Shown here piece by piece: positions 172 to 63,689 of a DNA stretch of 63,906 nt. The notes beneath the pieces are model-generated. The model worked only from the letters and a program-made list of their open reading frames with translations. It was not told where the DNA came from and did no database searches. The stretch's first letter is position 1; each line of letters begins with the position of its first letter. Source of the stretch: a virus. Taxonomy: Duplodnaviria > Caudoviricetes. The stretch covers positions 1 to 63,906 of the IMG/VR virus record IMGVR_UViG_3300037325_000356; one strand, written 5' to 3'. The translations under genes and the position numbers were made by a program.

Positions 172-840
172 TTAAATCTTGAAATCTATAACTTCATAGA
201 AAAATGATTCTATGCAATTCGCTACGGCATCACAAGGTTTCTCACCACGGCTGATCCGCACAGCCGCCGATTCCTGTACCGCACTGATCCGCCGTAAAGC
301 TTTACGCCCAAAACTGTCGCGGGTTAAAGCTACTGGGTTCCCTAGCTCTTCCTTTATCTGCTTTGCTGTCTTTCCAAACAATCCCCTGTTGATAGCGTCA
401 ATAGGTGTCGAATAGTGGAAAAACGAGATCTCCTTACCCGCAGCCTCGCGACTTTGTTTGATAGCTGATGTGAACTCCCAAAACAGCTCCTTAACCGCAA
501 GGCGATCCACTATCCAAGCTTGACGCTCTTCTAGTCCTAACTCGATCCCTAATTGTTCAAAGGCGATTGACCGGATTGAATCCCCAAAACCCGCAGCTAA
601 TATTTTGGCAACTTCTATATTTTGGTTAACCGATGATTCCCATGTGGCGATCGCTAGAAAATCTTCCAGTGAAATTAAAGCAACTTTGGGAGTGCCATCA
701 GTTTTTTTATTGACAATGATTCCGGTAAATTTGCCGATAACTAAATCCTTGCCCAGAAAGGCTTTGAGCGATTTAGAGGCGATTTTTTTCCGATAACTGT
801 CTGCCCTGTAATTGAGAATGACTTCTGGGGACTCATGCAC
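172..840 (-). CDS. Antirepressor-like DNA-binding protein, possibly 5'-truncated
   Basis: C-terminus (FTSAIK...DAINRGLFGKTAKQI) resembles 6008-6724 and 62555-63304. It lacks the usual N-terminal part and has no ATG start. Confidence 0.55.
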   Translation of the reverse strand: MHESPEVILNYRADSYRKKIASKSLKAFLGKDLVIGKFTGIIVNKKTDGTPKVALISLEDFLAIATWESSVNQNIEVAKILAAGFGDSIRSIAFEQLGIELGLEERQAWIVDRLAVKELFWEFTSAIKQSREAAGKEISFFHYSTPIDAINRGLFGKTAKQIKEELGNPVALTRDSFGRKALRRISAVQESAAVRISRGEKPCDAVANCIESFFYEVIDFKI

Positions 841-907
841 CGGAAGTTTACGCTTTGCGGTGCTTTCTATCTAAGAAAAAACCCGCGCGGGGCGGGTTAG
901 GTGCTGT

Positions 908-1630
908 CTATTTGGTGGATGTTGAGTCTATAAGGGCGATCGTCTCATCGTGATTTTTCCCTGACGATCGCAGCATATGATAGCTGTAATAAGTGCGATT
1001 CAATTGCTCCATTAGTGCATAGTCATCTGGGTTGTAATCGTCAATATGTTTTAAAGACAATCCTGCCGCTGTCTTCAATTTGTTAACCTCAGCCCCGTAG
1101 TTGACGGTAATCGAGAGTTTGTCGCCGTCTTCTTTTAGCCAGTCGGTGAACATATCACGAAACTGTTGCCGATGAGTTTGACGCGCGACAATCACACGCT
1201 GGCGGTCTTCTTTCTCACGTTTGATGTTGAAAGCATCCGCCCAAAGCTGATCTATTGCGACACCAATTAGGTCGTCACAGGTATCTGTTGCCGATTCATA
1301 CCCGGCTTTGTCCAACACTCTCAATATGCGCTGGAAGTCGATCAAGTTTACTGCTAAAGTTTTGTTTTTGTTAAATTCGGTCTTACAATCAAAAAAGACT
1401 ACTTGGGGGGTCTTGGAACCCTTAGCTAGTAATCGTTTCAAGGTTTGAGCCGTGTAATTTTGTGTGTCTTGATTCAACCAGTTGATGCCTATTTGGGGAA
1501 CGCCGATCGCGAAACTCCCATCATCTTCTAGCATCAAACCTTCAAACCCTAAATTCCCGATACTGACTGTGGCGATCGTAGCTTTGCGTGTTATAGCCTT
1601 GCCGTTAAAATCGTGTGGTATGATAGCCAT
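908..1630 (-). CDS. Antirepressor-like DNA-binding protein
   Basis: N-terminus RKATIATVSIGNLGFEGLMLEDDGSFAI is paralogous to 6008-6724; it is preceded by the conserved leader. Confidence 0.65.
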   Translation of the reverse strand: MAIIPHDFNGKAITRKATIATVSIGNLGFEGLMLEDDGSFAIGVPQIGINWLNQDTQNYTAQTLKRLLAKGSKTPQVVFFDCKTEFNKNKTLAVNLIDFQRILRVLDKAGYESATDTCDDLIGVAIDQLWADAFNIKREKEDRQRVIVARQTHRQQFRDMFTDWLKEDGDKLSITVNYGAEVNKLKTAAGLSLKHIDDYNPDDYALMEQLNRTYYSYHMLRSSGKNHDETIALIDSTSTK

Positions 1631-1652
1631 AGTTGCCTTGTTTGATAAGGGG

Positions 1653-1740
1653 ACTCAATGCACCGGAAATTCAAGTTTCGCGGTGCTTTTTCTATTGTAG
1701 CATAATGGCAAAGGTTTGCACTAAAATGCGGTGACGATCG
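1653..1740 (-). promoter_or_regulatory. Conserved promoter plus hairpin leader (also 831-868 partial, 6748-6830, 63327-63405)
   Basis: Minus strand reads ATGCTACAAT (extended -10) then GCACCGCGAAAC...TTCCGGTGC; near-identical upstream of four related genes. Confidence 0.7.
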
Positions 1741-1885
1741 CGCCCTGAGACTCCATTTTGTAGGAGCCTTGCACGGTTGTGAAACCCGCTCCCAGTATAT
1801 CTTCTAAGCCTTTTGGGAGCCTTTTCGACCGGGTGGTAGATTCGTTCAATCCGATGCTTTCTGCAAGCCCTGCACCTGAGAGAGA
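1735..1885 (-). pseudogene. Silent variant segment of the 62555-63304 gene family
   Basis: Translates LSGAGLAESIGLNESTTRSKRLPKGLEDILGAGFTTVQGSYKMES; no start codon. Confidence 0.8.
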
Positions 1886-1889
1886 ATTG

Positions 1890-2375
1890 TTAAGGACTTG
1901 TTAAGTTTGTGACAAAAAAGCTAGGGGCGGGCGGCGTAATAGGTGACATCAGAATCGTATCAATACCCGGTAAAGTGTCATCGTCTGGGAAGTCGAAAGC
2001 ATAGGGAGAAATAGAGGCTTTATATTCAATTTTTGCCAGCCATCGAGTATCCTGTACCATTAACTGCCATTCCATATTTGTTAATACGCCCGCGGCATAA
2101 TCAGGTAGGAATAAATGCAACAATCCCCACACACGCTCGACAACAGGGAAACAAGCCGTAGCAGTCTTAACCCTACTCGGTAATAGTACGTTTACTTCTA
2201 TTGAGACTGAGTTAATATTGCCGCCATTTATGAACACTACGACATCACCCGCAGTCTCTTGTTTCATTCTTTCTGTGTCATCGGGTAAACCTCGCACCAA
2301 CACGCCGCCCGGTTGAAGCAACTCTCGCACTGGTTGCAGTTTGTTTAAAATACTCAACTCTATTTCTTTCAGCAT
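1890..2375 (-). CDS. Putative tail completion/terminator protein (Gp37-like)
   Basis: Size and the MLKEIELSILNKL N-terminus resemble Mu Gp37-type proteins; tentative. Confidence 0.4.
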   Translation of the reverse strand: MLKEIELSILNKLQPVRELLQPGGVLVRGLPDDTERMKQETAGDVVVFINGGNINSVSIEVNVLLPSRVKTATACFPVVERVWGLLHLFLPDYAAGVLTNMEWQLMVQDTRWLAKIEYKASISPYAFDFPDDDTLPGIDTILMSPITPPAPSFFVTNLTSP

Positions 2376-2547
2376 ATTTTTAAAAGATTGTCTGACTTGA
2401 TTGTAGTGGCTAGCCTGTCTCAAAGCAGCATTATTTGAGGTATTAAAGCCCTGCTATACTCTGTTCTTTGGGTTTTCCCGTACAGCACCTTCAGACGGCT
2501 TTAAAACCCCATAGAGTTCCTTCCGATCGCCGGGCACGTCATTCTTC

Positions 2548-2693
2548 AGAAGCGAGGTTAGAAGTCCTTCACACTTACTGTAGAGTCTGTCGTTTGAATA
2601 GTCTTACTATTAGTAAGAGATCCAAACGACAGACACATCAGGTAGGACTCGCTTCTATTCTACCTTTTACCTGACTCAATACATGAGTCAGGT
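2548..2693 (+). repeat. Hairpin element copy 2 with tail
   Basis: AGAAGCGAG...GTCTGTCGTTT...CTTACTATTAGTAAG...AAACGACAGAC...CTCGCTTCT, then CCTGACTC-AATACAT-GAGTCAGG. Confidence 0.95.
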
Positions 2694-2761
2694 TTTGGTA
2701 AAATTGAAGGGAAAAAGTGCCACCCGCCCGGTAGGTTCCAGCCGCCCGATCGGGAGCATCG

Positions 2762-3085
2762 AGCGTTCAGACAACCGTTCAGCCGTGTTCAGCCGTGAAC
2801 GCATCTGAACGGTTACAGGGAGGGGCGTTCAGGCGTTCAGACGAGCGTTCAGAAAATTTAATGAGAGGCTTTTAGAGGCGTTCAGACACTCTGAACGACT
2901 GAATAATCGAACACCGTGCGATCGGTTCTAACTGGCACAGTGCGCGACGTTCAGACGTTCAGACAAGAGTTCAGCCGTGTTCAGCCGTGAACGCATCTAA
3001 ACGGTACAGTGCGCGAGGTTCAGGCGTTCAGACAAGCGTTCAGACTAGCGTTCAATACTCTGAACGCCTGAATAATCGAATTCAA
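2762..3085 (+). repeat. GCGTTCAG/CTGAACG array A
   Basis: Dense CGTTCAG units at about 7-13 nt spacing; homologous to arrays B-D. Confidence 0.9.
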
Positions 3086-3136
3086 CCCACCCGATCGGTT
3101 CGATACGCACACCCTTTGTGTCAATGGTTTGTATTC

Positions 3137-3758: not shown

Positions 3759-3766
3759 TTCCACAC

Positions 3767-3813: not shown

Positions 3814-4176
3814 TCAATACCCTACAAAATAGGCATCATCTTCTGGATCTATGTCGTCATCATCATCATCAAATAGATCGTCATCATCACCAAATAGATC
3901 GTCATCATCACCAAATAGATCGTCAGTTTCTGCTAAAAGATCGTCATCATCACCAAGTAAGTCGTCATCATCTTCAAGTAATTCGTCATCATCTTCAAGT
4001 AATTCGTCATCATCTTCAAGTAAGTCGTCATCGGACTCGGACTCGTCACCAAAAAGATCGTCGTCATTGTCATTAAATAAAGATTGCAATTCTTCTTGTT
4101 CTTGCACTTCATCCAGAACCCATAAAGCATAACTGTTTTTATCCGCAGTTTTTTCGATCTTGCTATTTTTAGGCAT
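3814..4176 (-). CDS. Extremely acidic heptad-repeat protein (DDDDLFG/EDDDELL)
   Basis: GA-rich leader and ATG start; 21-bp tandem repeats at about 3850-4070. Confidence 0.7.
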   Translation of the reverse strand: MPKNSKIEKTADKNSYALWVLDEVQEQEELQSLFNDNDDDLFGDESESDDDLLEDDDELLEDDDELLEDDDDLLGDDDDLLAETDDLFGDDDDLFGDDDDLFDDDDDDIDPEDDAYFVGY

Positions 4177-6007: not shown

Positions 6008-6724
6008 TTAAGAGTAAAAGTCGATCGCGTCAGTGACTGCTAACAGCGGTTCCAGCCCTCTGTCTATCAACCTCACGGCGTGACCTTCAATTCTGTCTAT
6101 CAACACCAAAGATGCGGCACTATGGGTACTTCTCAGTTCATTTCTGTCGCACGATCGCTCTGCACAAAGTTTGGCTGCTGTTTTCCCGAATAGCGATCGG
6201 TTGATTTTGTCTGAGCAATTCGAGTACACGAACTTTCGGTAATTCTCCGAGACTTCATTTTGCTTGCCCAAATATTCCTTTATTGCGTCGGTCAAAGTGC
6301 GACGGGTAATTTTCCCGGCTAGTCGGGCGGTTAGATATTCTTGCCGATTGTGCTTGTCAAATTCAATCCCAAATGCGTCTGAGAATAACTGGGTGAGTGC
6401 TAGTCCGACTAATGCAAGGTTTAACTCAAGAGCTTTTTTGTTTCCCCTTGAGGACAAAACTACAATGACTTTCTCAAACTCCAAAAGTGTAACACAGTTG
6501 ACAGCCTTTGGGTTCAATGTAGTACGCGCTTTGGATAACTGGAAATCCTCACCCAGTATAGCTTTGATGTCTCTTGATGCGTGAACTTTGGATAACTGGA
6601 ATATACTACAAATCTGTGAAACTGCTACCGCATATTCCCCATTATCCTCAAACCTGAGACCTTCTATTTCCAAAGTTCCCATTTTGACGATCGCGATCGT
6701 AGCTTTGCGTGTTAGAATACTCAT
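6008..6724 (-). CDS. Antirepressor-like DNA-binding protein
   Basis: N-terminus is like 908-1630; the C-terminal ~105 aa are nearly identical to 62555-63304. Confidence 0.7.
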   Translation of the reverse strand: MSILTRKATIAIVKMGTLEIEGLRFEDNGEYAVAVSQICSIFQLSKVHASRDIKAILGEDFQLSKARTTLNPKAVNCVTLLEFEKVIVVLSSRGNKKALELNLALVGLALTQLFSDAFGIEFDKHNRQEYLTARLAGKITRRTLTDAIKEYLGKQNEVSENYRKFVYSNCSDKINRSLFGKTAAKLCAERSCDRNELRSTHSAASLVLIDRIEGHAVRLIDRGLEPLLAVTDAIDFYS

Positions 6725-6827
6725 TAGTTGACCTGCTTTTTAGGTTTACTCATGCACCGGAAATTCGAGTTTCGCGGTGCTTTTCTATTGTAGCATAATA
6801 TCAAAGGTTTGCACTAAAATGCGGTGA

Positions 6828-7320
6828 CGCTCAAACTCCACAAGTGTAACACAGTTGACAGCCTTTGGGTGCAATGTAGTACGCGCTTTGAGGAATTGGA
6901 AACCCGCTCCTAGTATAGCCTTGAGGTCTCTTGATGCGTTCTTTATGAGGAACGAGAATATACTACAAATCTGTGAAACTGCTATCGCATAGTTCTGCCT
7001 TGTACCTTTATTGCGATCGGTTGTCACTCGACATAACTGAAAACCCGCACCCAATATACCTTTCAGCCATTTTGGTGCCCTAATTGGTATAACTGAAAAC
7101 AGCGTCGCGACTTGCTGTTGTGCCCTTCTACCGCTTCTCTGTTTGTCTTGTCTTGATTAAGCCAGAATCCTCTGCCAGTATAACTTTGATGTCTCTTTTG
7201 ACTTGATTAGTGATTAAGCCAAAAAGGCTAGCGACTTGCTGTTGTGCGATCGCATATTCCCCATTGTCATCAAATCGGAGACCTTCAAACTCAAAACTCC
7301 CGATACTGACTGTGATGCGT
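6828..7320 (-). pseudogene. Tandem array of three silent variant segments of the 6008-6724 N-domain
   Basis: Translations: AIAQQQVASLFGLITNQVKRDIKVILAEDSGLIKTR / AQQQVATLFSVIPIRAPKWLKGILGAGFQLCRVTT / AIAVSQICSIFSFLIKNASRDLKAILGAGFQFLKARTTLHPKAVNCVTLVEFE. Confidence 0.85.
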
Positions 7321-9329: not shown

Positions 9330-9439
9330 CTCATCTAGCATTATTTTAGAGCTTGGTTAACTGCCTATTAACTGTCTGGCAGTCAAACATTTTTACTACA
9401 ATCGTACTATGCACATAGCTAGAACCTAGCAAAAATGCT
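9330..9439 (+). repeat. Linker repeat L1 (also 60450-60549; partial 29796-29863 and 63685-63753)
   Basis: TGTCTGGCAGTCAAACATTTT...CCTAGCAAAAATGCT always abuts the left end of an element. Confidence 0.9.
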
Positions 9440-9641: not shown

Positions 9642-9866
9642 CTAGTCAAAAAAGAAAAAGGATTTGACCGTCTTTTCTAATTCTGGGGTGCGATCGTACA
9701 CATTGACTTGATCGTGCCCGTGTTGAGCTGTCCCCAAAGGTTCGTGATGTTGGTGAAACCGCTCTACCCATTTGCCTAGTTTGGACTCTTCACCGGGCTT
9801 TAAGGAATACCCCAAATCCTGTGCTAAAACGGCTGGGAAGACTGCTGTCGCTGCTGTTAAGGTCAT
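9642..9866 (-). CDS. Stand-alone C-terminal domain of the 12937-13638 family
   Basis: AVLAQDLGYSLKPGEESKLGKWV...QVNVYDRTPEL is shared; its 5' leader and MTLT start match the KilA-N gene 21504-22283. Confidence 0.7.
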   Translation of the reverse strand: MTLTAATAVFPAVLAQDLGYSLKPGEESKLGKWVERFHQHHEPLGTAQHGHDQVNVYDRTPELEKTVKSFFFFD

Positions 9867-12936: not shown

Positions 12937-13638
12937 CTAGTCGAAAAAGGCTTTGACTGTCGCCTGTAATTCTGGAGTGCGATCGTACACATTGACTTGA
13001 TAGCGACCGTGTTGAGCTTGCCCTAAAGGTTCGTGATACCTCCTTACCCATTTGCCTAGTTTGGACTCTTCACCGGGCTTTAAGGAATACCCCAAATCTC
13101 GCGCTAAAACGGCTGCTAAAACGGGGTTAGCAGCGCTACCGGGTAAAGCGCTGTTTGCTCCCAATTCCTCTGCTAAACGCTGCTCAAACGCTGCTTTGAT
13201 TATTGGGTTGGTAATACTCGGCAATAGTTTTGTAGCGTCTACCAATACCTCAAACGATGTCGGCAACTGTCGGGACTGTTCTGGTGCGGGTGCGGGTGCG
13301 GTTAGTTGGCTAATAACGTGCTTTACCCCGATCGCCCCAAACGTCCGAGCCAACTGCTTAGCCATCGGTGCGGCTGCTTTAGACTCGTATGCAAAGTATT
13401 CGATCGCTAGCCAAACCGCTTGGGGATTAAAGCCATTCTCTACCAAGTCTCCACACTCAAGTCCATGCTCAGTATAGGTTTGGGCTAGTTTTACCGACTT
13501 AAAGTCTCCACCATCGATAATAGAGTTGTGGTGAACGCTACAGCAGCGCGCAACACCACGGATGCTCAAATTCCCATTGGGCATTGCCTGATCACGAATG
13601 AAACTCAAAAAGTCTTGTTCAGATTTGATAATGTTCAT
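12937..13638 (-). CDS. Antirepressor-like DNA-binding protein
   Basis: HTH-like LSIRGVARCCSVHHNSII and IEYFAYES; own promoter and terminator. Confidence 0.7.
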   Translation of the reverse strand: MNIIKSEQDFLSFIRDQAMPNGNLSIRGVARCCSVHHNSIIDGGDFKSVKLAQTYTEHGLECGDLVENGFNPQAVWLAIEYFAYESKAAAPMAKQLARTFGAIGVKHVISQLTAPAPAPEQSRQLPTSFEVLVDATKLLPSITNPIIKAAFEQRLAEELGANSALPGSAANPVLAAVLARDLGYSLKPGEESKLGKWVRRYHEPLGQAQHGRYQVNVYDRTPELQATVKAFFD

Positions 13639-14914: not shown

Positions 14915-15340
14915 TCGATTATTCAGGCGTTCAGAGTATTGAACGCTCGGCTGAACGCTCGGCTGAACGCCTGAACCTTGCACACTGTACCGTTTAGATG
15001 CGTTCACGGTTGAGACTGTCTGAACGGTCGGCTGAACGCCTGAACCTCGCGCACTGTACCCATTAGAGGCGATCGCACTGTGTTCGATTATTCAGGCGTT
15101 CAGAGTGTCTGAACGCTCGGCTGAACGCCTGAACCTTGCACACTGTACCGTTTAGATGCGTTCACGGTTGAGACTGTCTGAACTCTACCGTGAACGCCTG
15201 AACCTCGCGCACTGTACAGGTTTGAGACGATAATTGTTCACACCTTATTTTTTCCGTTCAGAGTGTCTGAACGCCTCTAATTAAATTTTCTGAACGCTCG
15301 GCTGAACGCTCGGCTGAACGCCTGAACCTCGCGCACTGTA
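14915..15340 (-). repeat. GCGTTCAG array B (inverted), followed by a half element at 15359-15400
   Basis: Many CTGAACG units and an internal duplication of about 155 bp. Confidence 0.9.
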
Positions 15341-15636
15341 ACCGTTCGGTTGAGTTCACGGTTGAGTTCACGGTTGAGTCTGTCTGAACGCTCGGCTGAC
15401 CCATTTTTCGGGTTAAGGTGGAGAGGAAATTGAAACCTCGCTTCTGTCTTGACCGATCGGGCGGACGGGCCATTCTAATCGACAAAGCCAAAAACAAAAA
15501 ACCGGGTAAAATGTCATTTTCTACCCGGTTTTTTATGTTTTGGGCATGACAACTCTTTGTATTCTGAATCCAGACAGAGACAGAGACGCGGCGATCGGAT
15601 GCTGTTAAAACTTCCATATTTTCAACAAATAGGTAC

Positions 15637-20492: not shown

Positions 20493-20567
20493 GAATTTTA
20501 GGCGAGAATTGAAGGGGAAAAGTGCCACCCGTCCGCCCGTCCGCCCAAAGCCGATCGGTTAGGGTTC

Positions 20568-20875
20568 CGTTCAGACAGACTCAACCGTGAACTCATCTGA
20601 ACGGTTACAGGGAGGTGCGTTCAGGCGTTCAGACAATCGTTCAGAAAATTTAATGAGAGGCTTTTAGAGGCGTTCAGACACTCTGAACGTAAAAAATAAG
20701 GAGTAAACGATTATCGCCTCTAACCTGTACAGTGCGCGACGTTCAGACGTTCAGACAACCGTTCAGCCGTATTCAGCCGTGAACTCGTCTAAATGGGTAC
20801 AGTGCGCGAGGTTCAGGCGTTCAGACAAGCGTTCAGACTAGCGTTCAATACTCTGAACGCCTGAATAATCGAACA
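20568..20875 (+). repeat. GCGTTCAG array C
   Basis: Homologous to A; sits alone between element copies 9 and 10. Confidence 0.9.
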
Positions 20876-20913
20876 CCGCCCGATCGCCCGTCCGCCCCGC
20901 CCGGTCAATTTTC

Positions 20914-21058: not shown

Positions 21059-21298
21059 ATTTTAGGCGAGAATTGAAGGTGCGATCGCTCTGAGACTAAC
21101 GGCAAGAGAGAAAAGTTGGTAGACCTTGACAAGCTTTTTCCACGATCCATTTATGTGCATAGCGTGATTGTAATGAAGAAGCTAGCCCGATCGCCCGTTG
21201 GGAGCCCGCCCGATCGCCCGATCGGTTCCAACCGTCCGCCCGATCGCCCGATCGGTTCCAACCGTCCGCCCGCCCGATCGCCGCGGGCGTGATTCTTC

Positions 21299-21503: not shown

Positions 21504-22283
21504 CTACATCAAATCTCGAACAGTTTCAACCATCGACTCTACCCATTTGGTGTGTTGGTAGCTGGTGTTGTCTTCAAGCCGTCCAGTGGCAATCGTGTTG
21601 GAAGAATACGGTTTGCCCTTCTCTGTTGGCAAATAGGCGGGTTCAGTCTTGCCCTTGCTATGATTCTTTACCTGATACCCGTGGTGCGTCAACAGCGCGT
21701 TAATTACCCGTCCTGAGACTCCTAACCGATCGCCGATCGCCGTGGGAGTTAGCAGTATTTCTGCTATCGGGGTGTTGGCTGCTAGTAGCGAGTGCCCGGC
21801 ATTGACACTTTGCTTTAGTTCGGGATGATATCGTTGGACTTCATTTAGCAACATCCCATCAACTAGCGCGGCTGGTACGCTAGACATCGCCGATCGCAGC
21901 AAGTCTAAATGTGCCGTGGTTAATGCAGGTTGCTCGACTTGCGGGGCGATCGATACCGTCCCTTCAGTCATCAAGGTTTTAATCTGCTGGGACACCCACA
22001 CTCGGAATTTCACATTGCACCACGCCGCGAAGTCGATCGCCACTTCCTCAATTGCCCATGTCCCTTGTTTTTCAGGGATGCCTCCTTGATTTGTTTCCGT
22101 TACGGGGATTCCCGTAACGGAAACAAACTCTTCCAGGAAATCGATTGTACTGCTTAATCGGGTGTAGTCATTTACTTTTTTCCCTGTCGCCTTAGCCATA
22201 TCGGTTAGCGAAACCCAAACCCGATTGCCCCGCATCTCGAACCGAATATTCTTGCCAGCAAAGTCCAAAATTGTTAAGGTCAT
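21504..22283 (-). CDS. KilA-N domain antirepressor-like protein
   Basis: WVSLTDMAKATGK...QGTWAIEEVAIDFAAWC; C-terminal LTPTAIG..LG...YLPTEKG (KilAC-like). Confidence 0.9.
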   Translation of the reverse strand: MTLTILDFAGKNIRFEMRGNRVWVSLTDMAKATGKKVNDYTRLSSTIDFLEEFVSVTGIPVTETNQGGIPEKQGTWAIEEVAIDFAAWCNVKFRVWVSQQIKTLMTEGTVSIAPQVEQPALTTAHLDLLRSAMSSVPAALVDGMLLNEVQRYHPELKQSVNAGHSLLAANTPIAEILLTPTAIGDRLGVSGRVINALLTHHGYQVKNHSKGKTEPAYLPTEKGKPYSSNTIATGRLEDNTSYQHTKWVESMVETVRDLM

Positions 22284-22543: not shown

Positions 22544-23608
22544 TCAGGTCAAGCAATCGCGGCCCCCGTCGGCTGTCTTTTTCGAGTTGCGGTGTGATTC
22601 TCTCTCGCATCGGATCAATTCCCGACAGATGGCGGCGGCTAGCGGTACAGCAACACCATTTCCAGCAACAAACCCGGTGATTATCTCGTTACCCATCAAG
22701 TAATAATCTGGCGCACCTTGCAAAGCCAAAAGACAGCGGCTTGATAGTTTATAACCTATCGCCTCCCCTAGCGGTTTGTTAAAATCTGATTGCATGACTA
22801 TCACGGGCCGCCATCCCCCCGATCGCAATCCCTCGCAAGCTCTGACTGTCGGAGATTGATCGTTATATTTGTGCACCCCAGGTTTATTGCAATCACTACC
22901 CGCTCCACCAACTAATAATGCAACATCATTAGGAGATATCAAGCCTTTATCTAATGCTTTACGAATTGCTTCTATTTGGTATGGTGCAAGTAGTTTTGTT
23001 TTACAATTGTGCACCCATCTTTCCAGACTCTGATACCATCCAACACGGCTAACAAAATGCCGATCGATATCAAATCGCTGCATTATATCCGGTTCCCGTG
23101 ATGCTATCAAAATAAATCGTTCTCTGTTTTGTGGCACTCCAAACTCTCTCGCGTTTATTGGGCTTGACCATACAGTGTATCTCGCTTTTTTGAGAGCGTC
23201 TAAAATCATCTGGAATGCCTTTGTTTTTTCGTAGGCTGGCACATTTTCTAACACGAAAAACCGAGGGCTCACTCTTTCAAAGGCTCTAACCGTGGCTGCT
23301 GCTAGTTCGCAGTCTAGATATAATGCCTCTGTTTTTGCTCCCTCTGAATTATGCCGCTTTGCACGGCTGCTATTTTTACACGGTGGTGATGCTTGCAACA
23401 TCCAAATATTCGTATAGTCTCCCCATTCATTGTCCGCCAGACTTCGGATGTCTCCATCTAAAATATCACATCCATGATTTAAATGATAAATTTTGGCTTT
23501 TTTGCTGTCTAATTCGATCGCACCCGCTGGAATTAAACCCGCTTGTTTTGCTCCTTCTGTGAACAATCCCCCGCCAGCAAATAGCGTTAATATTTTCCGA
23601 TCTGTCAT
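22544..23608 (-). CDS. DNA cytosine-5 methyltransferase
   Basis: Motifs LFAGGG, SPPC, ENV, QNRER, GNGV. Confidence 0.95.
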   Translation of the reverse strand: MTDRKILTLFAGGGLFTEGAKQAGLIPAGAIELDSKKAKIYHLNHGCDILDGDIRSLADNEWGDYTNIWMLQASPPCKNSSRAKRHNSEGAKTEALYLDCELAAATVRAFERVSPRFFVLENVPAYEKTKAFQMILDALKKARYTVWSSPINAREFGVPQNRERFILIASREPDIMQRFDIDRHFVSRVGWYQSLERWVHNCKTKLLAPYQIEAIRKALDKGLISPNDVALLVGGAGSDCNKPGVHKYNDQSPTVRACEGLRSGGWRPVIVMQSDFNKPLGEAIGYKLSSRCLLALQGAPDYYLMGNEIITGFVAGNGVAVPLAAAICRELIRCERESHRNSKKTADGGRDCLT

Positions 23609-29599: not shown

Positions 29600-29863
29600 T
29601 TTTTGTCTCTCTCTCGTTTTCTTTGACTTCTAAAGACTAGCAGACATCAATAGTATCTGTCAAGGGTTTTGATAAAATACTTTTAAGATTGGCTAGAACG
29701 GCTTAAGGGCAAGGCTTTTAGAAAAAAATCAACCGATAGCAGGACTCATCATTAAGACTTGCCACCTACAGCGCGTGATATTGTGGCAAACGTATTGTCT
29801 GGCAGTCAAACATTTTTACTACAATCGTACTATGCACATAGCTAGAACCTAGCAAAAATGCTT

Positions 29864-35478: not shown

Positions 35479-36291
35479 TTAAGAGTGTGAGAGTATCAAC
35501 AGTTCCTTAACTTTTGCTCTGTCGCCTCCGATTGATCGATTAGCCATTATCTCTATCTTTTTACACAAAGGATAGCGAGATCGAACTTCTGCTGTATCCA
35601 CTTCTGATACTGCAAATTTGCAACCGGATGACAGTAGAATATATGCCATTCTGTCGGCATCGATCGCACTCCACCGCCCGCCTGCATACTCTTGAAAACC
35701 TTTCCCGTCAATCTTTGAATAGGGCGGATCACAATAGAAGAAAACATTGTCGCGGTCTTTGTATTTTGCTATTGTGTCCGCAAAGTCGCAGCAGTCAAAT
35801 TGAACATTCTCAATTTTTGCTGTTACGGCTTCAATCGTCTTTCTTACCGCATCAACAGTTGGCAATTTATCCCCTATTGGTACATTGTAATTCCCTTTTA
35901 GATTGTAGCGGCACAACCCATTAAAGGAAGTTTTCATCAGATACAGAAACAACCCAGCCATTCTATGTTTATCGTCTGTTAAACTTTGTTTCTGTTCGTT
36001 AAATGTTTGTCTCGCTTTATTGTAATTTTCGATCGAATGAATTATTGCATGAGACTCGTATTGATTAATTAAATCTTCCGGCTCGTCTCGCACCATCTGC
36101 CACAAATTTACTAGATCCGGGTTTACATCGCTTGCCGCCGCCTCGTTTTTGTTGAAATAAAGAAAGCTACCGCCGCCACCTAAAAACGGCTCTACATGAA
36201 AATTTGAGTCGCTAAAGACGTTGTATTGATTGTAGAGTTTAGATAACTCTCCCTTTCCGCCCGCCCATTTTGTCAAACTCAGATTAGCCAT
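35479..36291 (-). CDS. dam: Dam-family N6-adenine methyltransferase
   Basis: KWAGGK, EPFLGGG, FNGLCRYN, DPPY. Confidence 0.93.
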   Translation of the reverse strand: MANLSLTKWAGGKGELSKLYNQYNVFSDSNFHVEPFLGGGGSFLYFNKNEAAASDVNPDLVNLWQMVRDEPEDLINQYESHAIIHSIENYNKARQTFNEQKQSLTDDKHRMAGLFLYLMKTSFNGLCRYNLKGNYNVPIGDKLPTVDAVRKTIEAVTAKIENVQFDCCDFADTIAKYKDRDNVFFYCDPPYSKIDGKGFQEYAGGRWSAIDADRMAYILLSSGCKFAVSEVDTAEVRSRYPLCKKIEIMANRSIGGDRAKVKELLILSHS

Positions 36292-37291: not shown

Positions 37292-37705
37292 GAGCGTTCA
37301 GACAGACTCAGCCGTGAACTCAGCCGTGAACGCATCCGAACGGTTACAGTGCGCGAGGTTCAGGCGTTCAGCCGAGCGTTCAGAAAATTTAATGAGAGGC
37401 TTTTTAGAGGCGTTCAGACACTCTGAACGACTGAATAATCGAACACCGTGCGATCGCCTCTCACCTGTACAGTGCGCGAGGTTCAGGCGTTCACGGTAGA
37501 GTTCAGCCGTATTCAGCCGTGAACGCATCTAAACGGTTACAGAGATGGGCGTTCAGGCGTTCAGCCGAGCGTTCAGCCGAGCGTTCAATACTCTGAACGC
37601 CTGAATAATCGAACACAGTGCGATCGGTTCTAACGGGTACAGTGCGCGAGGTTCAGGCGTTCACGGTAGAGTTCAGACACTCTGAACGCCTGAATAATCT
37701 AATTC
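37292..37705 (+). repeat. GCGTTCAG array D
   Basis: Homologous to arrays A-C. Confidence 0.9.
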
Positions 37706-53897: not shown

Positions 53898-56800
53898 ATG
53901 CCTGATCTAAAAATTACAGTGACTGTAGATGATTCTGCTGTATCAGCTTTAGAAGGCAGACTAAGAGGGTTGTCTGGTGCTGCTAGTGGTGTTGGTGGTG
54001 TTGGAGGTTCGGCAACATCTCAGACTCAAAAATTCGGTGAAAGTCTGCAAAGTGTAGGCGGCGCTATGTCAACTTTGGGCGGGTTAACATTAGCAGCAAC
54101 TGCACCCGCAATAGCCGGATTTGGAGCGTCGGCAAAAGCCGCAATTGATTATGAATCCGCACTCGCAGATGTTCAGAAAATTTCAGATTTCAAGGCGGGG
54201 ATGGGTAGCGACTTCTCTAATGGTTTACTCGAATTATCGGCAAGTTTAGGGAGTGTTAACCCTAACGATTTGGCCGCTATATCGGCTGGTATGGTAAGAC
54301 CTGGGCAGAGTGCACAAGACCTGTTATTAGCATCTGAAGCCGTATCGAAAATGGGTGTAGCTTTCAATATGAGTGCGGCAGATTCCGGTAAAGCATTAGG
54401 CAAGTTATCCACAGCTTTTAAAGTGCCTGCACGGGATATGAAAACTTTTGTGGGAGGGCTTAACGAATTATCAAACAAGACAGGGATTGCAGGGAAAGAT
54501 TTAGTTAATTTTATGTCGAGTAGTTCTGAATTAGCGGGTAGAATGCCAGCAACCGACGTAGCGGCAATGGGCACGGCCTTAATTAGCGCGGGTATAGCCT
54601 CAGCTAGAAGCGGGCGATCTATCTCGTCTATATCCTCTAAGTTGATGATGGCTAGCAGCTTATCAAATAAAGCTAAAGCCTCTTTTAAAGATATGGGAGT
54701 AAGTGCTAAAGACTTGGAAGCTGATGTCTCAAAGCGCGGCGCACCGGCTATTGTTGACTTTTTAGAAAAAATCAACAAAATACCGACAGCCGCCAAAAAA
54801 ACCGAGGCATTGAATAACATTTTTGGTGCTGACTTTGCACGAACGGCTGGGGTATTAGCTAATAATTTGGGACAGGTTAGAAGCAACTTGAAAGCAGTTT
54901 CAGATCAGAAAGCGGTAGCCTCGTCAGTTGATAGAGAATATGCAGTCAGGCAAGCAACAACAGCTAACCAATTAAAAACATTTGGTGCAACAGCACAAAG
55001 AGTCGGGATCGCAGTAGGATCGGGGCTTTTGCCTGCTATTAATGACGTGGGAAAGGCGGTTCTGCCGATGGCTAATGAGTTTGCAAAATTTGCTACCGCT
55101 AACCCAGGTATTGTAAAAAATGCTGTAGCGTTTACTGGGGTTGCAGCGGCGGGCGGTTTGGCTTTAAGCGTCGCGGGTAGTCTCGCAACCTCGATCGGCG
55201 CGATCGCCACCGCAGCACCTATTATCGGAGGCGCGGTTGCAGGCATCGGAGGGGCGGTAGTAGGGGCGGGCGGCGCGGTAGTAGGTGCTGGCGTGGCAAT
55301 GGGCACCGCTTTGGTTGGTATCGGATCGGCCGCTGTGAGTGTTGGAGGCGCGGTAGTAGGTGCTGGCGTTTCGATGGGAACCGCTGTTGTTGGAGCGGCA
55401 ACAGGAGCCGCCACACTAGCAGGCAGTTTATTATCAATTCCAGCCGTCGGTTTGGCCGCAGCAACAGTCGCAGGTTTAGGCTTAGGTGTCGCCATCCACA
55501 AAGCGATTAACCCAGCAACCGATCTAAATACTATTATTCCTGATATAGGCTTAGGTGCTAAGCAATCGTGGCAAGATGTCAGCACTGCCGGATCTCAACT
55601 TTGGAGCGATTTAAAACTCGGAGGCAAACAAACATTAACAGATTTAGGAAGCGGTTTCACTTCAGTTAAAGATACTGTTGGATCGGCTTTTACAGGTGTT
55701 ACCGAGTCCGTCGGCTCTGCTTTTACAGGTGCTTTAACAAACGTGACCGGGTTTGTTACTTCGATCGGTACAAGTTTCTCGACTGTCGGAACTACTATCA
55801 GCACAGCTTTTTCTACAGTCGGAACCTCTATTAGCACAGCGTTTACAGGCGCTTTAACAAACGTGACCGGGTTTGTTACTTCGATCGGTACAAGTTTCTC
55901 GACTGTCGGAACTACTATCAGCACAGCCTTTTCTACAGTCGGAACCTCTATTAGCACAATCTTTACAGGATTAGGTTCAACTATTACCGGGTTTGTTACT
56001 TTGATCGGTACAAGTTTCTCGACTGTCGGAACTACTATCACTACAGCCTTTTCTACAGTCGGAACCTCTATTAGCACAATCTTTACAGGATTAGGTTCAA
56101 CTATTACCGGGTTTGTTACTTCGATCGGTACAAGTTTCTCGACTGTCGGAACTACTATCACTACAGCCTTTTCTACAGTCGGAACCTCTATTAGCACAAT
56201 CTTTACAGGATTAGGTTCAACTATTACCGGGTTTGTTACTTCGATCGGTACAAGTTTCTCGACTGTCGGAACTACTATCACTACGGCCTTTTCTACAGTC
56301 GGAACCTCTATTAGCACAATCTTTACAGGATTAGGTTCAACTATTACCGCTTTTGTTACTTCCGTTAGCACTGCATTTTCTACAATCGGAACCTCGATCA
56401 GCACGGCAATGAGTGCCGCAATGACTAGCGTACAATCTGCGGTTTCAGGGATGCAAACAGCCATATCGACTATGGCTTCCAGTATTCAAACAGCTTTTTC
56501 TACAATGGGTACAGCCATCAGTACCGCGATGTCCGGTGCTTTGACTGCCATACAGGCATCTATTACCAGTATTCAAAGCGCGATCTCTGCAATGGCAACC
56601 TCTATGCAGGCTAGCTTTGCTGCTGCGGGTGCGGCCATGCAATCAGGAATGACGGCGGCTGTTGCTGGCGTTCAAGCTGCTTTGACTGGGTTATCTTCAG
56701 CCGCTAGTGCTGCCGGATCAGCTTTAGCGGCCGCTGCAAATTCTGCCGTCGGAGCGTGGCAAGCTTTAGCAGGTGCTATTGGTGCAGCCGTTTCTGCTGC

Positions 56801-57125
56801 ACAGAGCGCCGCTACTGCTGTTGCTGGGGCGGCTAGTAGTGCTGCTAGTGCAGTTGCTGGTATTGCAGGCGGCGGTGCCAAGGGTGTGTCTAGCGGTGCT
56901 AAAGGCTTAGACGCTTCTCCTTCTCCGTTCCCTCGCTATACCGCACCCGGTGGCCTCGGAGGCGGTGCAACTAATATCAATTTCTCACCACAAATCGGAG
57001 TGAATGGCGTTTCCTCTTTCAATGCGAGGGATTTTATCCGCGAATTGCGATCGCATGAATCCGAATTTGCAAACTACCTTAGTAGTCTCACTAACAGACA
57101 AAATCGCTTTAAATATTCCGATTGA
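53898..57125 (+). CDS. Tape measure protein (TP901-like)
   Basis: AAIDYESALADVQK, Ala/Gly-rich, 11/18-residue aromatic periodicity. Confidence 0.95.
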   Translation: MPDLKITVTVDDSAVSALEGRLRGLSGAASGVGGVGGSATSQTQKFGESLQSVGGAMSTLGGLTLAATAPAIAGFGASAKAAIDYESALADVQKISDFKAGMGSDFSNGLLELSASLGSVNPNDLAAISAGMVRPGQSAQDLLLASEAVSKMGVAFNMSAADSGKALGKLSTAFKVPARDMKTFVGGLNELSNKTGIAGKDLVNFMSSSSELAGRMPATDVAAMGTALISAGIASARSGRSISSISSKLMMASSLSNKAKASFKDMGVSAKDLEADVSKRGAPAIVDFLEKINKIPTAAKKTEALNNIFGADFARTAGVLANNLGQVRSNLKAVSDQKAVASSVDREYAVRQATTANQLKTFGATAQRVGIAVGSGLLPAINDVGKAVLPMANEFAKFATANPGIVKNAVAFTGVAAAGGLALSVAGSLATSIGAIATAAPIIGGAVAGIGGAVVGAGGAVVGAGVAMGTALVGIGSAAVSVGGAVVGAGVSMGTAVVGAATGAATLAGSLLSIPAVGLAAATVAGLGLGVAIHKAINPATDLNTIIPDIGLGAKQSWQDVSTAGSQLWSDLKLGGKQTLTDLGSGFTSVKDTVGSAFTGVTESVGSAFTGALTNVTGFVTSIGTSFSTVGTTISTAFSTVGTSISTAFTGALTNVTGFVTSIGTSFSTVGTTISTAFSTVGTSISTIFTGLGSTITGFVTLIGTSFSTVGTTITTAFSTVGTSISTIFTGLGSTITGFVTSIGTSFSTVGTTITTAFSTVGTSISTIFTGLGSTITGFVTSIGTSFSTVGTTITTAFSTVGTSISTIFTGLGSTITAFVTSVSTAFSTIGTSISTAMSAAMTSVQSAVSGMQTAISTMASSIQTAFSTMGTAISTAMSGALTAIQASITSIQSAISAMATSMQASFAAAGAAMQSGMTAAVAGVQAALTGLSSAASAAGSALAAAANSAVGAWQALAGAIGAAVSAAQSAATAVAGAASSAASAVAGIAGGGAKGVSSGAKGLDASPSPFPRYTAPGGLGGGATNINFSPQIGVNGVSSFNARDFIRELRSHESEFANYLSSLTNRQNRFKYSD
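55720..56400 (+). repeat. 120-bp (40-aa) tandem repeat, about 5.5 copies, in the tape measure gene
   Basis: Near-identical sequence every 120 nt. Confidence 0.95.
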
Positions 57126-57801: not shown

Positions 57802-58581
57802 TTATCGATTATCAAAATAATTACAGATCGCTGTGTCTAACTCTTCAGTTACCCTGTAGACACCAATCAATCTTTGCGTACCATTGCACAAGCGCGACTC
57901 ATTTTTTCTTGCGTCTGTTCGGGAGATCGGGATAGCCATGCTGACTGCCTTCCCTAGTTCCGGTCGGTACTCTGTTACCATCGAGATCGGATAACCCAAC
58001 TGTTCGGCACGTTCGGCCACACCACACCAAACCTCGCTATCTTCAGCTTTAAGCGCGGGTTGACCGACTCCGAGCATATCCATTGAAAAGTCTTGTAGAT
58101 GCTGCTTAAATCGCGGGTTATTGATGTCTATTTCTAGCCTGTCCAATATTTTGAAAAGTTCCACTAAACGAATATCAGCAGGTGGAAGTTGTAGCGGTTT
58201 TGGTTCTGGCGGCGCGATCGGCTGTTCGACTTCATATTTCCCCGTCTTGCGGATACTGGGGATAACTTCTGCATGAATCCATCGGTTTAATGCTTTTCCT
58301 AGCTCAGTGCGAGAGCGCGAAACAAACATTGTCAGGGCGGGTTCTGACAGGATTAGCATATTTTGATCCCGCTCGATAGTGTCGGAGATGAGTTTGTTAG
58401 TAAAAAAGTCATCTCCCAAATCCTCCCGTATCATAGCTTCTACCGCCGTGACTGTTGTACTAGACCCGATCGCCTGCAATATATCTTTAGCCACAAACCA
58501 GGGTTCGCCATTGATCGTAACAATTCGGACTTGATTGCTTTCAAACTCAAACTCAAACTCAAACTTTGCTAGAAGAGACAT
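57802..58581 (-). CDS. BRO-N domain antirepressor-like protein
   Basis: VRIVTINGEPWFVAKDI...LSEPAL...WIHAEVIPSIRKTGKY. Confidence 0.92.
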   Translation of the reverse strand: MSLLAKFEFEFEFESNQVRIVTINGEPWFVAKDILQAIGSSTTVTAVEAMIREDLGDDFFTNKLISDTIERDQNMLILSEPALTMFVSRSRTELGKALNRWIHAEVIPSIRKTGKYEVEQPIAPPEPKPLQLPPADIRLVELFKILDRLEIDINNPRFKQHLQDFSMDMLGVGQPALKAEDSEVWCGVAERAEQLGYPISMVTEYRPELGKAVSMAIPISRTDARKNESRLCNGTQRLIGVYRVTEELDTAICNYFDNR

Positions 58582-60302: not shown

Positions 60303-60549
60303 TCACCACCTTTCTTTTTTGCTTCTTTAAGCTATCACGCGACAAAGGTTTATGTCAAGGGTTTCGGTAAAATATTTTTAAAACAGGCTCTAACCTTGAC
60401 CCCATATAGAACTGAGTTAGGAGTGAATGGCCCGATCGGTCAAGACAGACTCATCTAGCATTATTTTAGAGCTTGGTTAACTGTCTGGCAGTCAAACATT
60501 TTTACTACAATCGTACTATGCACATAGCTAGAACCTAGCAAAAATGCTT

Positions 60550-61655: not shown

Positions 61656-61660
61656 TCTTT

Positions 61661-62023
61661 TTACCTGACTTTTTGTGAAGCGTCTTCTATTAAGTTAACA
61701 TCTATTACCATCCGAGTGATAATTCCGTTTAATTCCTTGCTGTATACTGCATCTATTTTTGCGATGCCGAAAATACCTTCTAGATCGGTTCCCGGTTGCC
61801 CAAAACCAAAACCACGAGCCGTCCCTAAGTCCGCAGCGTCACGCCACAATTTAACCCGCTGTCTTGAATTTGCACCGTTAAAATTCAACCGCAATTTTGC
61901 CGCCCGCGCTTTTCTTCCCAAAAACTGAGAAGACCTAAACCCGGTGATTATATTGTACTCGTCTGCAAATTCGCATGATATTAATTCTTGGTCATGAATT
62001 GTTATCGTTCCAAAAAATGCCAT
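61661..62023 (-). CDS. Tail tube initiator (P2 gpU-like)
   Basis: QFLG...LRLNF...GIFGI...IDVNLIE. Confidence 0.6.
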   Translation of the reverse strand: MAFFGTITIHDQELISCEFADEYNIITGFRSSQFLGRKARAAKLRLNFNGANSRQRVKLWRDAADLGTARGFGFGQPGTDLEGIFGIAKIDAVYSKELNGIITRMVIDVNLIEDASQKVR

Positions 62024-62092
62024 TGACAAATCCTCAATTGTATGTAAAGCTTTTATGTACACAGACAAAACCAAGAGACAATAGTTGACATA

Positions 62093-62500
62093 ATGATGTG
62101 TAGTCAATGCCATCTCAACCCAAGACCCGCCGCGACTGTCTCCACTTGCAATCATACACGTTTTGATTCTTGGTGCGATGAATGCTTTGTTACTCGAAAG
62201 CTAACCGATATTTTCCCACAATGTACCAAAGAGGATATCGACAATTTAGAGAGTATTCAAAAAGACAGAAAGCAGAAAAGATTCGACAAGGTGCAGATCA
62301 CCGAGTTGACATCAAAGCTAGCAAAACTTAGACGCGAAAAGACAGGCGGTTTCGATTATACCTACGGTGCTAAGGCAGAGACTGAATCTGATTTACTTGA
62401 CGAACTCGATAAACTCTCAAAACGTACAAAAAGACAAGCCTCTGACACTGAATTGCATCGGCAACAACTCGAAAGTATCTATGATTATCTAGACGATTAA
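62093..62500 (+). CDS. Hypothetical zinc-finger protein
   Basis: CSQC...CNH...CDEC; followed by a terminator. Confidence 0.6.
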   Translation: MMCSQCHLNPRPAATVSTCNHTRFDSWCDECFVTRKLTDIFPQCTKEDIDNLESIQKDRKQKRFDKVQITELTSKLAKLRREKTGGFDYTYGAKAETESDLLDELDKLSKRTKRQASDTELHRQQLESIYDYLDD

Positions 62501-62554
62501 ACTACAACAAAAAACCCGTCAAATCTTAGACGGGTTTTTTGTATCTGTTCGCAA

Positions 62555-63304
62555 TCAAGAGTAAAAGGCGATCGCGTCAGTGACAGCTATTTGCGGTTCC
62601 AGCCCTCTGTCTATCAACCTCACTGCGTGACCTTCAATTCTGTCTATCAACACCAAAGATGCGGCACTATGGGTACTTCTCAGTTCATCTCTGTCGCACG
62701 ATCGCTCTGCACAAAGTTTGGAGGCTGTTTTCCCGAATAGCGATCGGTTGATTTTGTCTGAGCAATTCGAGTACACGAACTTTCGGTAATTCTCCGAGAC
62801 CTCGTTAGTCTCCAAATATTCCTTTATTGCGTCTGTCAAAGTGCGACGGGTAATTTTCCCGGCTAGTCGGGCATTAGTCTTAGCCTCTGCCGCGCCCTGT
62901 TCATAAATCCGACCAAACCGATCGTCAATAATGATATCTAAAGTTGTGGCAATTAATGCCGTGACGATCGCGCCTGCAAGAATATTGTTCTGTTTGTCAT
63001 GGTATCGGTAATAGATGGCTGCGCTTGTGGTATCCCACAGGTTGAGCTTTGACTTACCGCCTGACTCCATTTTGTACTGCCCTTGCAACGTTGTGAAACC
63101 CGCTCCCAGCATAGCTTTGAGGTCTTCAGACAGCCGATTTTGCAACGTTGTGGAACGGTTCAATCCGATACTTTCTGCAAGCCCTGCACCTGAGAGATAA
63201 TTGATAAATTTCCCGGTAGTTGAAGAGATTTGATTAGCCGTGTAAGCGTCGATCGCGATCGAGCCGATGTAGATTTCTGTCTTGAAAACTGTTAGAATTG
63301 TCAT
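62555..63304 (-). CDS. Antirepressor-like DNA-binding protein
   Basis: NYLSGAGLAESIG N-domain; C-domain shared with 6008-6724. Confidence 0.7.
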   Translation of the reverse strand: MTILTVFKTEIYIGSIAIDAYTANQISSTTGKFINYLSGAGLAESIGLNRSTTLQNRLSEDLKAMLGAGFTTLQGQYKMESGGKSKLNLWDTTSAAIYYRYHDKQNNILAGAIVTALIATTLDIIIDDRFGRIYEQGAAEAKTNARLAGKITRRTLTDAIKEYLETNEVSENYRKFVYSNCSDKINRSLFGKTASKLCAERSCDRDELRSTHSAASLVLIDRIEGHAVRLIDRGLEPQIAVTDAIAFYS

Positions 63305-63417
63305 CAGTTCGCCTGCTTTATAGGTTGACTCATGCACCGGAAATTCAAGTTTCGCGGTGTTTTTTTATTGTAGCATAATAGCAAAGGTTTGCACTAAAAT
63401 GCGTTAAGGAAGTGTTG

Positions 63418-63689
63418 AGCTTGTGGTATCCCACAGGTTGAGCTTTGACCATGAGTTTTGAGTGTTTTTGTACTGCCCTTGTAACGTGGTAAAACCCGCT
63501 CCCAGCATAGCTTTGAGGTCTTCAGACAGCCGATTTTGTAACGTGGTATTTCTGTGTAATCCGATACTTTCTGCAAGCCCCGCACCTGAGAGATAGTTGA
63601 TAAATTTGCCTGTCGCGGGGTCAATCTCATTAGCCGTGTAACCGTCAACTGTTACCGCGCCGATCGCAAATTCTGTCTTGAAAACTGTC
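63418..63689 (-). pseudogene. Silent variant N-domain of 62555-63304
   Basis: TVFKTEFAIGAVTVDGYTANEID...KLNLWDTTS; lacks the native start and lies upstream of the promoter. Confidence 0.85.

Follow-up and report, generated by a model that had tools for sequence, protein, structure and literature searches.

Why should two short direct repeats within one gene stay identical to each other when the sequence that they share changes from one allele to the next? This question is raised by the virus record IMGVR_UViG_3300037325_000356 of IMG/VR, in which pairs of direct repeats 56–58 nucleotides (nt) apart lie inside antirepressor-like genes and gene fragments. The DNA analyzed, hereafter the window, comprises 63,906 bases and is the whole of that record, with an estimated completeness of 96%. 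An earlier inspection of its sequence (the original prediction) had located ten such pairs on the + strand, and all ten were confirmed at the same coordinates. They occupy one homologous place in two related gene families, every member being encoded on the minus strand, and share a layout in which one copy (X1) is followed by about 44 nt and then by the other copy (X2), with the codons for a conserved motif between them (in family 1, S-R-D-L-K-A-x-L-G). The phenomenon is genuine, broad and as yet unexplained. Covariation is the chief means of detecting functional RNA structure, where it is a sign of complementarity; here a signal of this kind marks the identity of direct repeats inside codons, and it spans 97 gene segments, in frame and out of frame. 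As an explanation we favor, with a probability of roughly one half, copying from one of the two sites to the other that is driven by homology (by template switching or short-tract conversion) and would keep the repeats alike.

Position and Statistical Support of the Paired Repeats

In the window by itself, the excess of repeats at this spacing was modest. Exact repeats of at least 9 nt had a mean of 1.32 per offset (standard deviation 1.86; offsets 15–300), and 3, 5 and 4 of them were found at offsets 56, 57 and 58, respectively. Eight of these 12 were pairs of the original list and four were unrelated (at 21215, 20568, 37501 and 44379). The short motifs of that list are common words when taken alone, since GTCTTG occurs 31 times and TGAGGAA seven times in the window. 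The reality of the pattern rests on position, every pair being found at the same place in paralogous genes or fragments.

The proposal that homologues be tested for an excess of repeat identity at the 56/57-nt spacing was followed in 62 DNA sources, namely 19 viral, 2 genomic and 40 metagenomic loci in addition to the window. N-terminal domains of family 1 were mapped at 96 places, 82 of them unique, and removal of four spurious ones (L025_2187, L041_307, L060_874 and L007_3570) left 78 segments, in which the excess was found. When offsets from 30 to 90 were scanned, self-matching runs of at least 10 nt numbered 13 at offset 56 and 16 at offset 57, with none at the other 59 offsets; in 25 segments offset 56 gave the longest exact self-match, and in 32 it was offset 57. 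Identical stretches were 6 to 17 nt long. The mean nucleotide match over 12 nt peaked at 0.59 at offset 57, with 0.53 at offset 56 and no more than 0.40 at the others between 45 and 69. In family 2 (19 segments, including 14 chromosomal cyanobacterial relatives), the longest match was at 57 in 17 segments, at 56 in one and at 31 in one. In addition, the two copies of a segment resembled each other (8.79 of 12 nt) more than a copy resembled the partner copy of the nearest relative (7.53 of 12 nt). The own pair won in 49 segments, tied in nine and lost in 20 (p = 1.6e-5). Chance origin is ruled out by the offset scan together with this own-versus-relative test. No repeat of at least 7 nt at offsets 30–90 was present in two canonical genes of the same phage, those for KilA-N (21504-22283) and Bro-N (57802-58581).

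The Link between the Copies Acts on Nucleic Acid

The link between the two copies acts on DNA or RNA and not on protein, as follows from an excess of identical codons, from repeats that are out of frame and from changes mirrored within the 56-nt register. Of the 154 codon pairs at the repeats that encode the same amino acid, 131 use the same codon, where 62.9 would be expected (z = 11.7), whereas control in-frame offsets showed no excess (2402 against 2460 expected). An alanine codon of family 2 may be GCT, GCG, GCA or GCC, each of them mirrored in both copies, and the silent third positions of both threonine codons co-vary in the T-T-x-Q subtype.

The original prediction described the 56-nt cases as out of frame, which is true and includes intact genes of other phages. 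A repeat of 10–16 nt at a spacing of 56 nt was present in nine full-length open genes, in which the same DNA is read in two frames (for example, as L-V-P-P-N and Q-S-H-Q-T in L025 and as F-S-S-T-Q and F-R-P-H-K in L023). In the clade with L-V-P-P-N and Q-S-H-Q, which has the 56-nt register, alternation of AGT, AAT and AAA and the change from CCCAC to CCCC took place in both copies while the encoded peptides differed, and one of the mirrored changes replaces V by I in one copy and is silent in the other. The two loci of the window at 63083 and 63479, in which both copies had been said to change together, bear this out: the 44-nt spacer is the same in the gene 62555-63337 and in the fragment in open reading frame (ORF) 63404-63745, and the repeats of the two differ at three mirrored positions, two of them synonymous. 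A constraint or process at the nucleic-acid level, as originally proposed, is therefore upheld, and amino-acid repeats do not fully account for the covariation.

It must be noted that many proteins of the 57-nt class do repeat the same tetrapeptide across the helix that separates the copies. The peptides on either side of the motif in family 1 include QLSK/QLSK, QFDK/QFDK, QFLK/QFLK, STRQ/STRQ and TTLQ/TTLQ, and those of family 2 follow GxyF/AxyL with xy being GD, GA, AD, SH, GG, AE, VD, GE, GN or GS. Such matches would be expected if both loops needed the same peptide, the identity of the DNA being a by-product. We consider this explanation very improbable. It is already contradicted by the 56-nt class, since the repeat encodes unlike peptides in the nine intact genes and mirrored changes go on within that register; synonymous positions co-vary as well, and like-charged pairs such as D/D and E/E would not be an obvious structural need.

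The sister genes L039 (56 nt) and L055 (57 nt) document a shift of register. They differ by indels of +1 and −1 about 10 nt apart around X1, by which the X1 DNA was moved by one base and the peptide of the loop was rewritten. On the whole-protein tree, the 56- and 57-nt labels were scattered, with 15 and 14 changes, as in shuffles; this tree is dominated by the C-terminal domain, so that register shifts cannot be counted on it.

Predicted Fold and Location of the Repeats

The AlphaFold (AF2) model of the protein encoded by 6008-6724 reached a predicted local distance difference test score (pLDDT) of 84.3. The modeled order is three strands, a helix (residues 35-41), a loop, a second helix (49-57), a further loop, two strands and helices. 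In this model X1 (residues 42-46) and X2 (61-65) are the loops at both ends of the second helix, which is the putative recognition helix.

The closest structural likeness was to DdrC of Deinococcus radiodurans (PDB 7qvb, 8u0g and 8u1j), which has the same architecture of a winged-helix N-terminal domain and a helical C-terminal domain. The likeness is marginal by several measures: Foldseek gave a probability of 0.99–1.0 with an E-value of 1.4e-3, VIA gave Z scores of 8.8 (whole protein) and 8.0 (N-terminal domain), with a whole-chain root-mean-square deviation (rmsd) of 14.8 Å, and an hmmsearch profile matched the C-terminal domain with an E-value of 1.2e-3. Sequence identity to DdrC is 14–17% and the whole-chain rmsd is large; DdrC genes are not known to carry such repeats. 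Weaker VIA matches were the N-terminal domain of CpGV Orf22 (Z 7.5), Dachshund (Z 6.2) and the APSES proteins Mbp1 (Z 4.9, 89 residues aligned, rmsd 3.9) and Swi6 (N-terminus, Z 4.3), the latter two below the secure level of the tool. On these models the N-terminal domain is a predicted DNA binder of a DdrC/APSES-like winged-helix kind, and by analogy with such folds helix 49-57 would be the recognition helix.

The term antirepressor-like, under which these genes had been introduced, stands at the level of predicted fold but not at that of sequence families. None of 10 proteins and fragments scanned against Pfam matched any family at E ≤ 0.01, KilA-N (PF04383) and Bro-N (PF02498) included, whereas the canonical KilA-N and Bro-N genes of the same phage scored 56.3 and 44.6 bits. 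NCBIfam provided no family name for these proteins, and the C-terminal half of the 6008-6724 product matched phrog_2657, annotated as a transcriptional regulator. With the KilA-N/APSES and Bro-N domains the studied proteins appear to share the fold class of the N-terminal domain, and they share the habit of forming multi-copy, shuffled families; they differ in that the Pfam models miss them and that the phage's own canonical KilA-N and Bro-N genes have no such repeat. As a separate observation, the KilA-N protein of 21504-22283 has G-I-P twice, 10 residues apart (TGIPVTETNQGGIPE).

Silent Sites of the Helix Codons and Possible Binding Sites

The core between the repeats is also conserved beyond its amino acids. 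In 46 non-redundant full genes, the excess of identical codons at conserved residues was 0.29 in the helix (8 columns) and 0.041 elsewhere (70 columns; p = 4e-5). The helix codons read AGA GAC nTC AAA GCy TTA CTG GGT (6545-6585 in the window), with near fixation of single codons (K54 as AAA in 38 of 38, D52 as GAC in 22 of 23 and L56 as TTA in 25 of 30). Fixation of third positions extended to codons with a varying residue, and the repeat's most variable codon is nearly always NNC. RNAalifold predicted no base pairs for 46 sequences of 135 nt, and reverse-complement partners of the repeats were not enriched (11 observed against 18.1 ± 5.2 expected). An internal promoter with TATACT as its −10 box was considered and rejected: no sigma-70-like site was found at the core of 6008-6724 (1.6 expected), and most family members read TTACTG at that place. 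One match of 9/12 overlaps X2 of 62555-63337, but its region had three sites against 1.9 expected. The conservation of silent sites is attributable to neither RNA fold nor promoter and remains unexplained. It amounts to a second layer of information in the helix codons, one that would escape gene callers and analyses of nonsynonymous and synonymous substitution (dN/dS).

Frame independence and a core conserved at synonymous sites would fit a site on DNA. The repeats, with or without the core, might be bound by a sequence-specific factor, most economically the winged-helix product of the gene itself. An operator- or iteron-like site would thereby be kept inside the gene, where recombination could not part the protein module from its site, and different repeats would keep the paralogues of one phage orthogonal. 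The semi-conserved flanks (TTC ... C-AAA) around 2–9 variable nt agree with this proposal, as do the predicted DdrC/APSES-like DNA-binding fold and the fact that each paralogue and fragment of the window has its own repeat. Nevertheless, further sites of the expected kind were not found. A search of the window with eight repeats at 0–2 mismatches returned no third copy or inverted partner beyond 9–10-mers at chance level, further copies within 600 nt of 35 genes were not in excess (31 observed against 27.8 ± 10), and the suggested scan of a host genome for the motifs came out negative in the one genome used, the 4.2-Mb host-type genome G362, which contained only its own two exact copies of the 13-mer and five one-mismatch matches against six in the reversed control. 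Moreover, the putative recognition helix is conserved while the repeats vary, so that specificity would need to lie elsewhere; two T-T-L-Q alleles have the same repeat-encoded peptide and different repeats; degraded fragments hold perfect pairs as often as intact genes do; and a distance of 56–57 base pairs, about 5.4 helical turns, would not favor cooperative binding on one face. A binding-site pair of this kind, which the original prediction had offered as one possibility, is in our opinion unlikely, although it is the main competitor of the copying explanation.

A broader alternative is that repeat, core and repeat form a functional nucleic-acid element of an undescribed kind, independent of frame and embedded in the codons of the putative recognition helix. 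Its signature would be covariation for identity, where RNA helices co-vary for complementarity. Examples would be a self-addressed site pair that ties an allele to its own gene, or a protein-bound core with repeats that guide programmed template switching. We regard such an element as possible, if doubtful. Were selection to be the cause, it would be a new kind of cis-element overlapping a DNA-binding domain, with a bearing on how phage regulatory modules hold protein and site together through rampant mosaic recombination.

Proposed Copying between the Two Repeats

If identity is needed whatever the sequence, a process based on base pairing is indicated, and the only co-varying partner of a copy is the complementary strand of the other copy; copying by slipped pairing is therefore favored. 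The proposed unit is a composite element in the codons of the winged-helix domain, with a core of about 33–44 nt and two flanking direct repeats of 8–17 nt placed 56 or 57 nt apart. One repeat would pair with the complement of the other by slippage, and a short template switch during replication, or short-tract gene conversion, would then write one copy onto the other; recurrence of this event would result in concerted evolution of the repeats. Converted alleles would survive if both loops tolerate almost any sequence, and compensated +1/−1 indels in the first loop would shift the register from 57 to 56 with the gene unbroken. The conserved core may promote the copying, for example as a bound protein site or as a recombination hinge. 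We infer the copying mechanism itself and its rate, as well as this role of the core.

The states of the repeats are consistent with block-wise transfer. The first variable codon was identical in both copies in 26 of the 47 segments outside the 56-nt class, across states 2–3 nt apart: CAG, ACA, GGC, ACC and TCG differ by 2–3 nt and occur as identical blocks in both copies. The usual state of X1 (Ser, TCG) is sometimes found in X2 and the usual state of X2 (Gln, CAG) sometimes in X1. In addition, repeats of at least 10 nt were as frequent in fragments or edge cases (10 of 27) as in full genes (19 of 51), and a relic of about 95 nt (L030_1318) retains a perfect 15-nt pair next to a decayed core. 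Templated copying had been proposed as a process that diversifies these positions; it fits best as a homogenizing process, given the block-wise identity, and not as a diversifying one.

The neighborhood of these genes is recombination-prone. Alleles are mosaics of 10–20-nt patches, and at one locus (L032:716-1117) a full gene is preceded by three tandem modules of 132 nt (44 amino acids, aa) that share a single open frame and have a repeat pair each (TTAQ/TTAQ, TTVQ/TTMQ and TTIH/TTIQ). The element is spanned by 18 of 23 isolated fragments, several of which end 0–4 aa after X2. A metagenome contig (run X5) joins 7250 to 6629 of the window through 21 shared nt. In the joined sequence fragments B and C (Table 1) are missing, and the strands of fragment A run directly into the helix part of gene 6008-6724. 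Another contig links 7152 with 6191.

Several points weigh against copying as the full explanation. Known template-switch or slippage events between repeats this short are rare, so that copying may fail to outrun mutation, above all in family 2 with only about 8–13 matching nt. Among five recently diverged pairs, too few for rates, three differences were mirrored, seven were in X1 only and one in X2 only, and one mismatch between X1 and X2 persists in four close relatives (L016, L018, L049 and L052). Homogenization is therefore incomplete and not fast. The synonymous conservation of the core and the NNC codon point to selection on nucleic acid beyond neutral copying. Finally, deletion or duplication joints of 56/57 nt at the repeats were absent from the 15 joints shown by four of the 10 metagenome runs found, although these runs are contigs from which rare variants are dropped, 15 of 36 joints were examined, and the result says nothing either way on slippage.

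A homology-dependent jump would also require identity independent of sequence, as in a selected slippage switch whose repeats are kept identical so that the 56/57-nt unit can often be lost or duplicated, be it in the DNA, in the transcript or at the ribosome. The outcome would be a DNA-binding domain switched off or an isoform that lacks the helix. In agreement with such a switch, deleted and duplicated forms of the 57-nt class stay in frame, and the protein P0034 has its 19-aa unit twice, bounded by three repeat copies; the two units have nevertheless diverged from each other, which makes the duplication old and not the result of a fast switch. Deleted or duplicated forms of all 14 tested genes of the 56-nt class stop after 6–23 codons and have no common product, and the spacer differs from a gap that is bypassed in being both translated and conserved. 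No homologue without the unit was found, the spacing being 39–41 aa in 24 of 25 family-1 proteins and 45–48 aa in 65 of 68 family-2 proteins, with rows outside these ranges being mis-hits of the pattern and not shorter forms. We regard a switch of this type as improbable.

The layout of a conserved core between variable direct repeats also recalls a target-site duplication, in which the core would be a small mobile insert and the repeats its duplicated target. An empty site was present in none of the 93 proteins measured, none of which lacks the 19-aa unit. Furthermore, no helix of the fold is more conserved than the one encoded by the core, the variable extent of the identical stretch (6 to 17 nt) does not suit a duplicated target, and removal of the unit breaks the frame in genes of the 56-nt class. 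This origin is the least probable of those considered here.

Two known systems were examined and discarded. Diversity-generating retroelements combine a reverse transcriptase gene with a template repeat and a variable repeat, each about 100 nt long or longer, whose differences lie at adenines; the repeats studied here measure 6–17 nt and are identical, and differences are not adenine-specific. No reverse transcriptase was found among the 34 ORFs or fragments of the window that were scanned, about half of its ORFs. In translational bypass of the T4 gene 60 type, matched take-off and landing codons are separated by an untranslated gap that starts with a stop codon, while the spacer here is open and conserved and codes for a predicted helix, and a jump in the 56-nt class leaves the frame.

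Among lambdoid phages, the iterons of lambda O and ori are type-specific direct repeats inside the gene of the DNA-binding protein that recognizes them, so that protein and site travel together. The present repeats differ from them in having two copies only, in flanking the putative recognition helix, where the iterons lie in a linker, in occurring in several paralogues per phage and in being kept by degraded fragments; their role as cis-sites is putative.

With regard to copying itself, PMC8604942 describes template switching that homogenizes short inverted repeats in yeast coding genes, one arm being copied onto its partner, and PMC5453318 describes template switching for mutation clusters in human genomes. 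The likeness lies in one short arm being copied onto a nearby partner, in clustered changes and in arms that are kept alike. The phage repeats differ from the cases described there in being direct and not inverted, in their fixed place in a fold, in their presence in two gene families and 97 segments, and in lying beside a core conserved at silent sites. In titles and abstract openings of the literature, nothing was found on a concerted, co-varying direct repeat of two copies within a gene. If copying is the true cause, these genes would be a natural and easily sequenced reporter of short-tract template switching or conversion between very short repeats, a process for which measurement is difficult and mutation clusters are as a rule the only evidence.

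Gene Families and Distribution

Family 1 is represented in the window by four full genes and by five N-terminal fragments upstream of full genes, and family 2 by one gene (12937-13638), by the C-terminal fragment 9654-9857 and by a short, weakly matching relic (Table 1). Protein searches returned 57 relatives for 6008-6724 and 79 for 12937-13638, the named ones being all hypothetical proteins. Some relatives with the same C-terminal half bear another N-terminal domain, KilA-N in 3 of 57 or Bro-N in 5 of 79, and the whole-protein tree ignores the type of N-terminal domain, from which it follows that the N- and C-terminal domains are shuffled. Nine records of cultured Nodularia phages matched in the C-terminal half only and are annotated as KilA-N domain protein or transcriptional regulator; the present N-terminal domain was not found among cultured phage isolates at E ≤ 1e-5. 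The element is spread over phages and chromosomes of Nostocales. In L014_2282, a relative of 908-1630 with 90% identity over 212 columns, the pair that is decayed in the window is retained in 14 of its 15 nt.

Table 1. Positions of the genes, fragments and paired repeats under study in the window.
Feature	Position	Strand	Remarks
Family-1 gene, shortened N-terminus	172..840	-	9-nt pair 734/790, 56 nt; read S-Y-R and V-I-G
Full-length family-1 gene	908..1630	-	Decayed pair, 6 nt at 1410/1466, 56 nt
N-terminal fragment, T-T-x-Q subtype	1742..1888	-	Decayed pair
Full-length family-1 gene, 238 aa	6008..6724	-	ORF; AF2 model with N-terminal winged-helix domain and helical C-terminal domain, predicted DdrC-like fold
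Repeat copy X2 of gene 6008-6724	6529..6544	-	Same 16 nt as X1, 57 nt further along the gene; residues 61-65
Core N of gene 6008-6724	6545..6585	-	Codons of the putative recognition helix (H49-57); synonymous sites kept across the family
Repeat copy X1 of gene 6008-6724	6586..6601	-	16 nt, F-Q-L-S-K, residues 42-46; predicted loop before the putative recognition helix
N-terminal gene fragment C, upstream of 6008-6724	6827..6994	-	7-nt pair 6889/6946, 57 nt
Gene fragment B	7030..7125 (about)	-	12-nt pair 7033/7089, 56 nt
Gene fragment A	7140..7313	-	11-nt pair 7154/7211, 57 nt
Short relic of family-2 repeat segment	10148..10243	-	9-nt pair 10152/10210, 58 nt; weak tblastn match, E 0.36
Full-length family-2 gene, 233 aa	12937..13638	-	10-nt pair 13445/13502, 57 nt; G-G-D-F and C-G-D-L
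Full-length family-1 gene, 260 aa	62555..63337	-	13-nt pair 63083/63140, 57 nt; T-T-L-Q encoded twice
N-terminal fragment upstream of 62555-63337	63401..63688	-	13-nt pair 63479/63536

Other Features of the Window

We read the window as a tailed phage of filamentous cyanobacteria, given that relatives of the studied genes were found in contigs of Anabaena azotica and Nostoc and in Nodularia phages. It encodes a terminase large subunit and a baseplate protein, and further genes are those of portal, tail sheath, capsid-like, Bro-N and sliding-clamp proteins. Should the record be circular or permuted, the clusters of genes at either end of the window would lie next to each other. A C5-cytosine DNA methyltransferase and a D12-class N6-adenine DNA methyltransferase are encoded at 22544-23608 and 35479-36291, respectively, and the sequence GCGATCGC has 29 copies in the phage genome.

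Other repeats are also present. A stretch of about 63 nt occurs at 9370-9432, 29793-29855, 60479-60541 and 63683-63745 with 95–100% identity; it makes up 21 residues at the start of ORF 63404-63745 and looks like a dispersed element upstream of genes. Non-coding arrays of GCGTTCAG/CTGAACG-like units of 8–12 nt lie at 2777-3054, 14940-15379, 20528-20897 and 37306-37587, and the array at 14951-15274 has a 158-nt unit in 2.1 copies. A 21-nt tandem repeat of 8.2 copies (3860-4032) is located inside the overlapping ORFs 3814-4176 (-) and 3851-4132 (+). Finally, a 120-nt tandem repeat (55746-56362; 5.1 copies, 95% match) lies within the 1075-aa ORF 53898-57125, which comes after the sheath and tube region and may encode a tape-measure-like protein.

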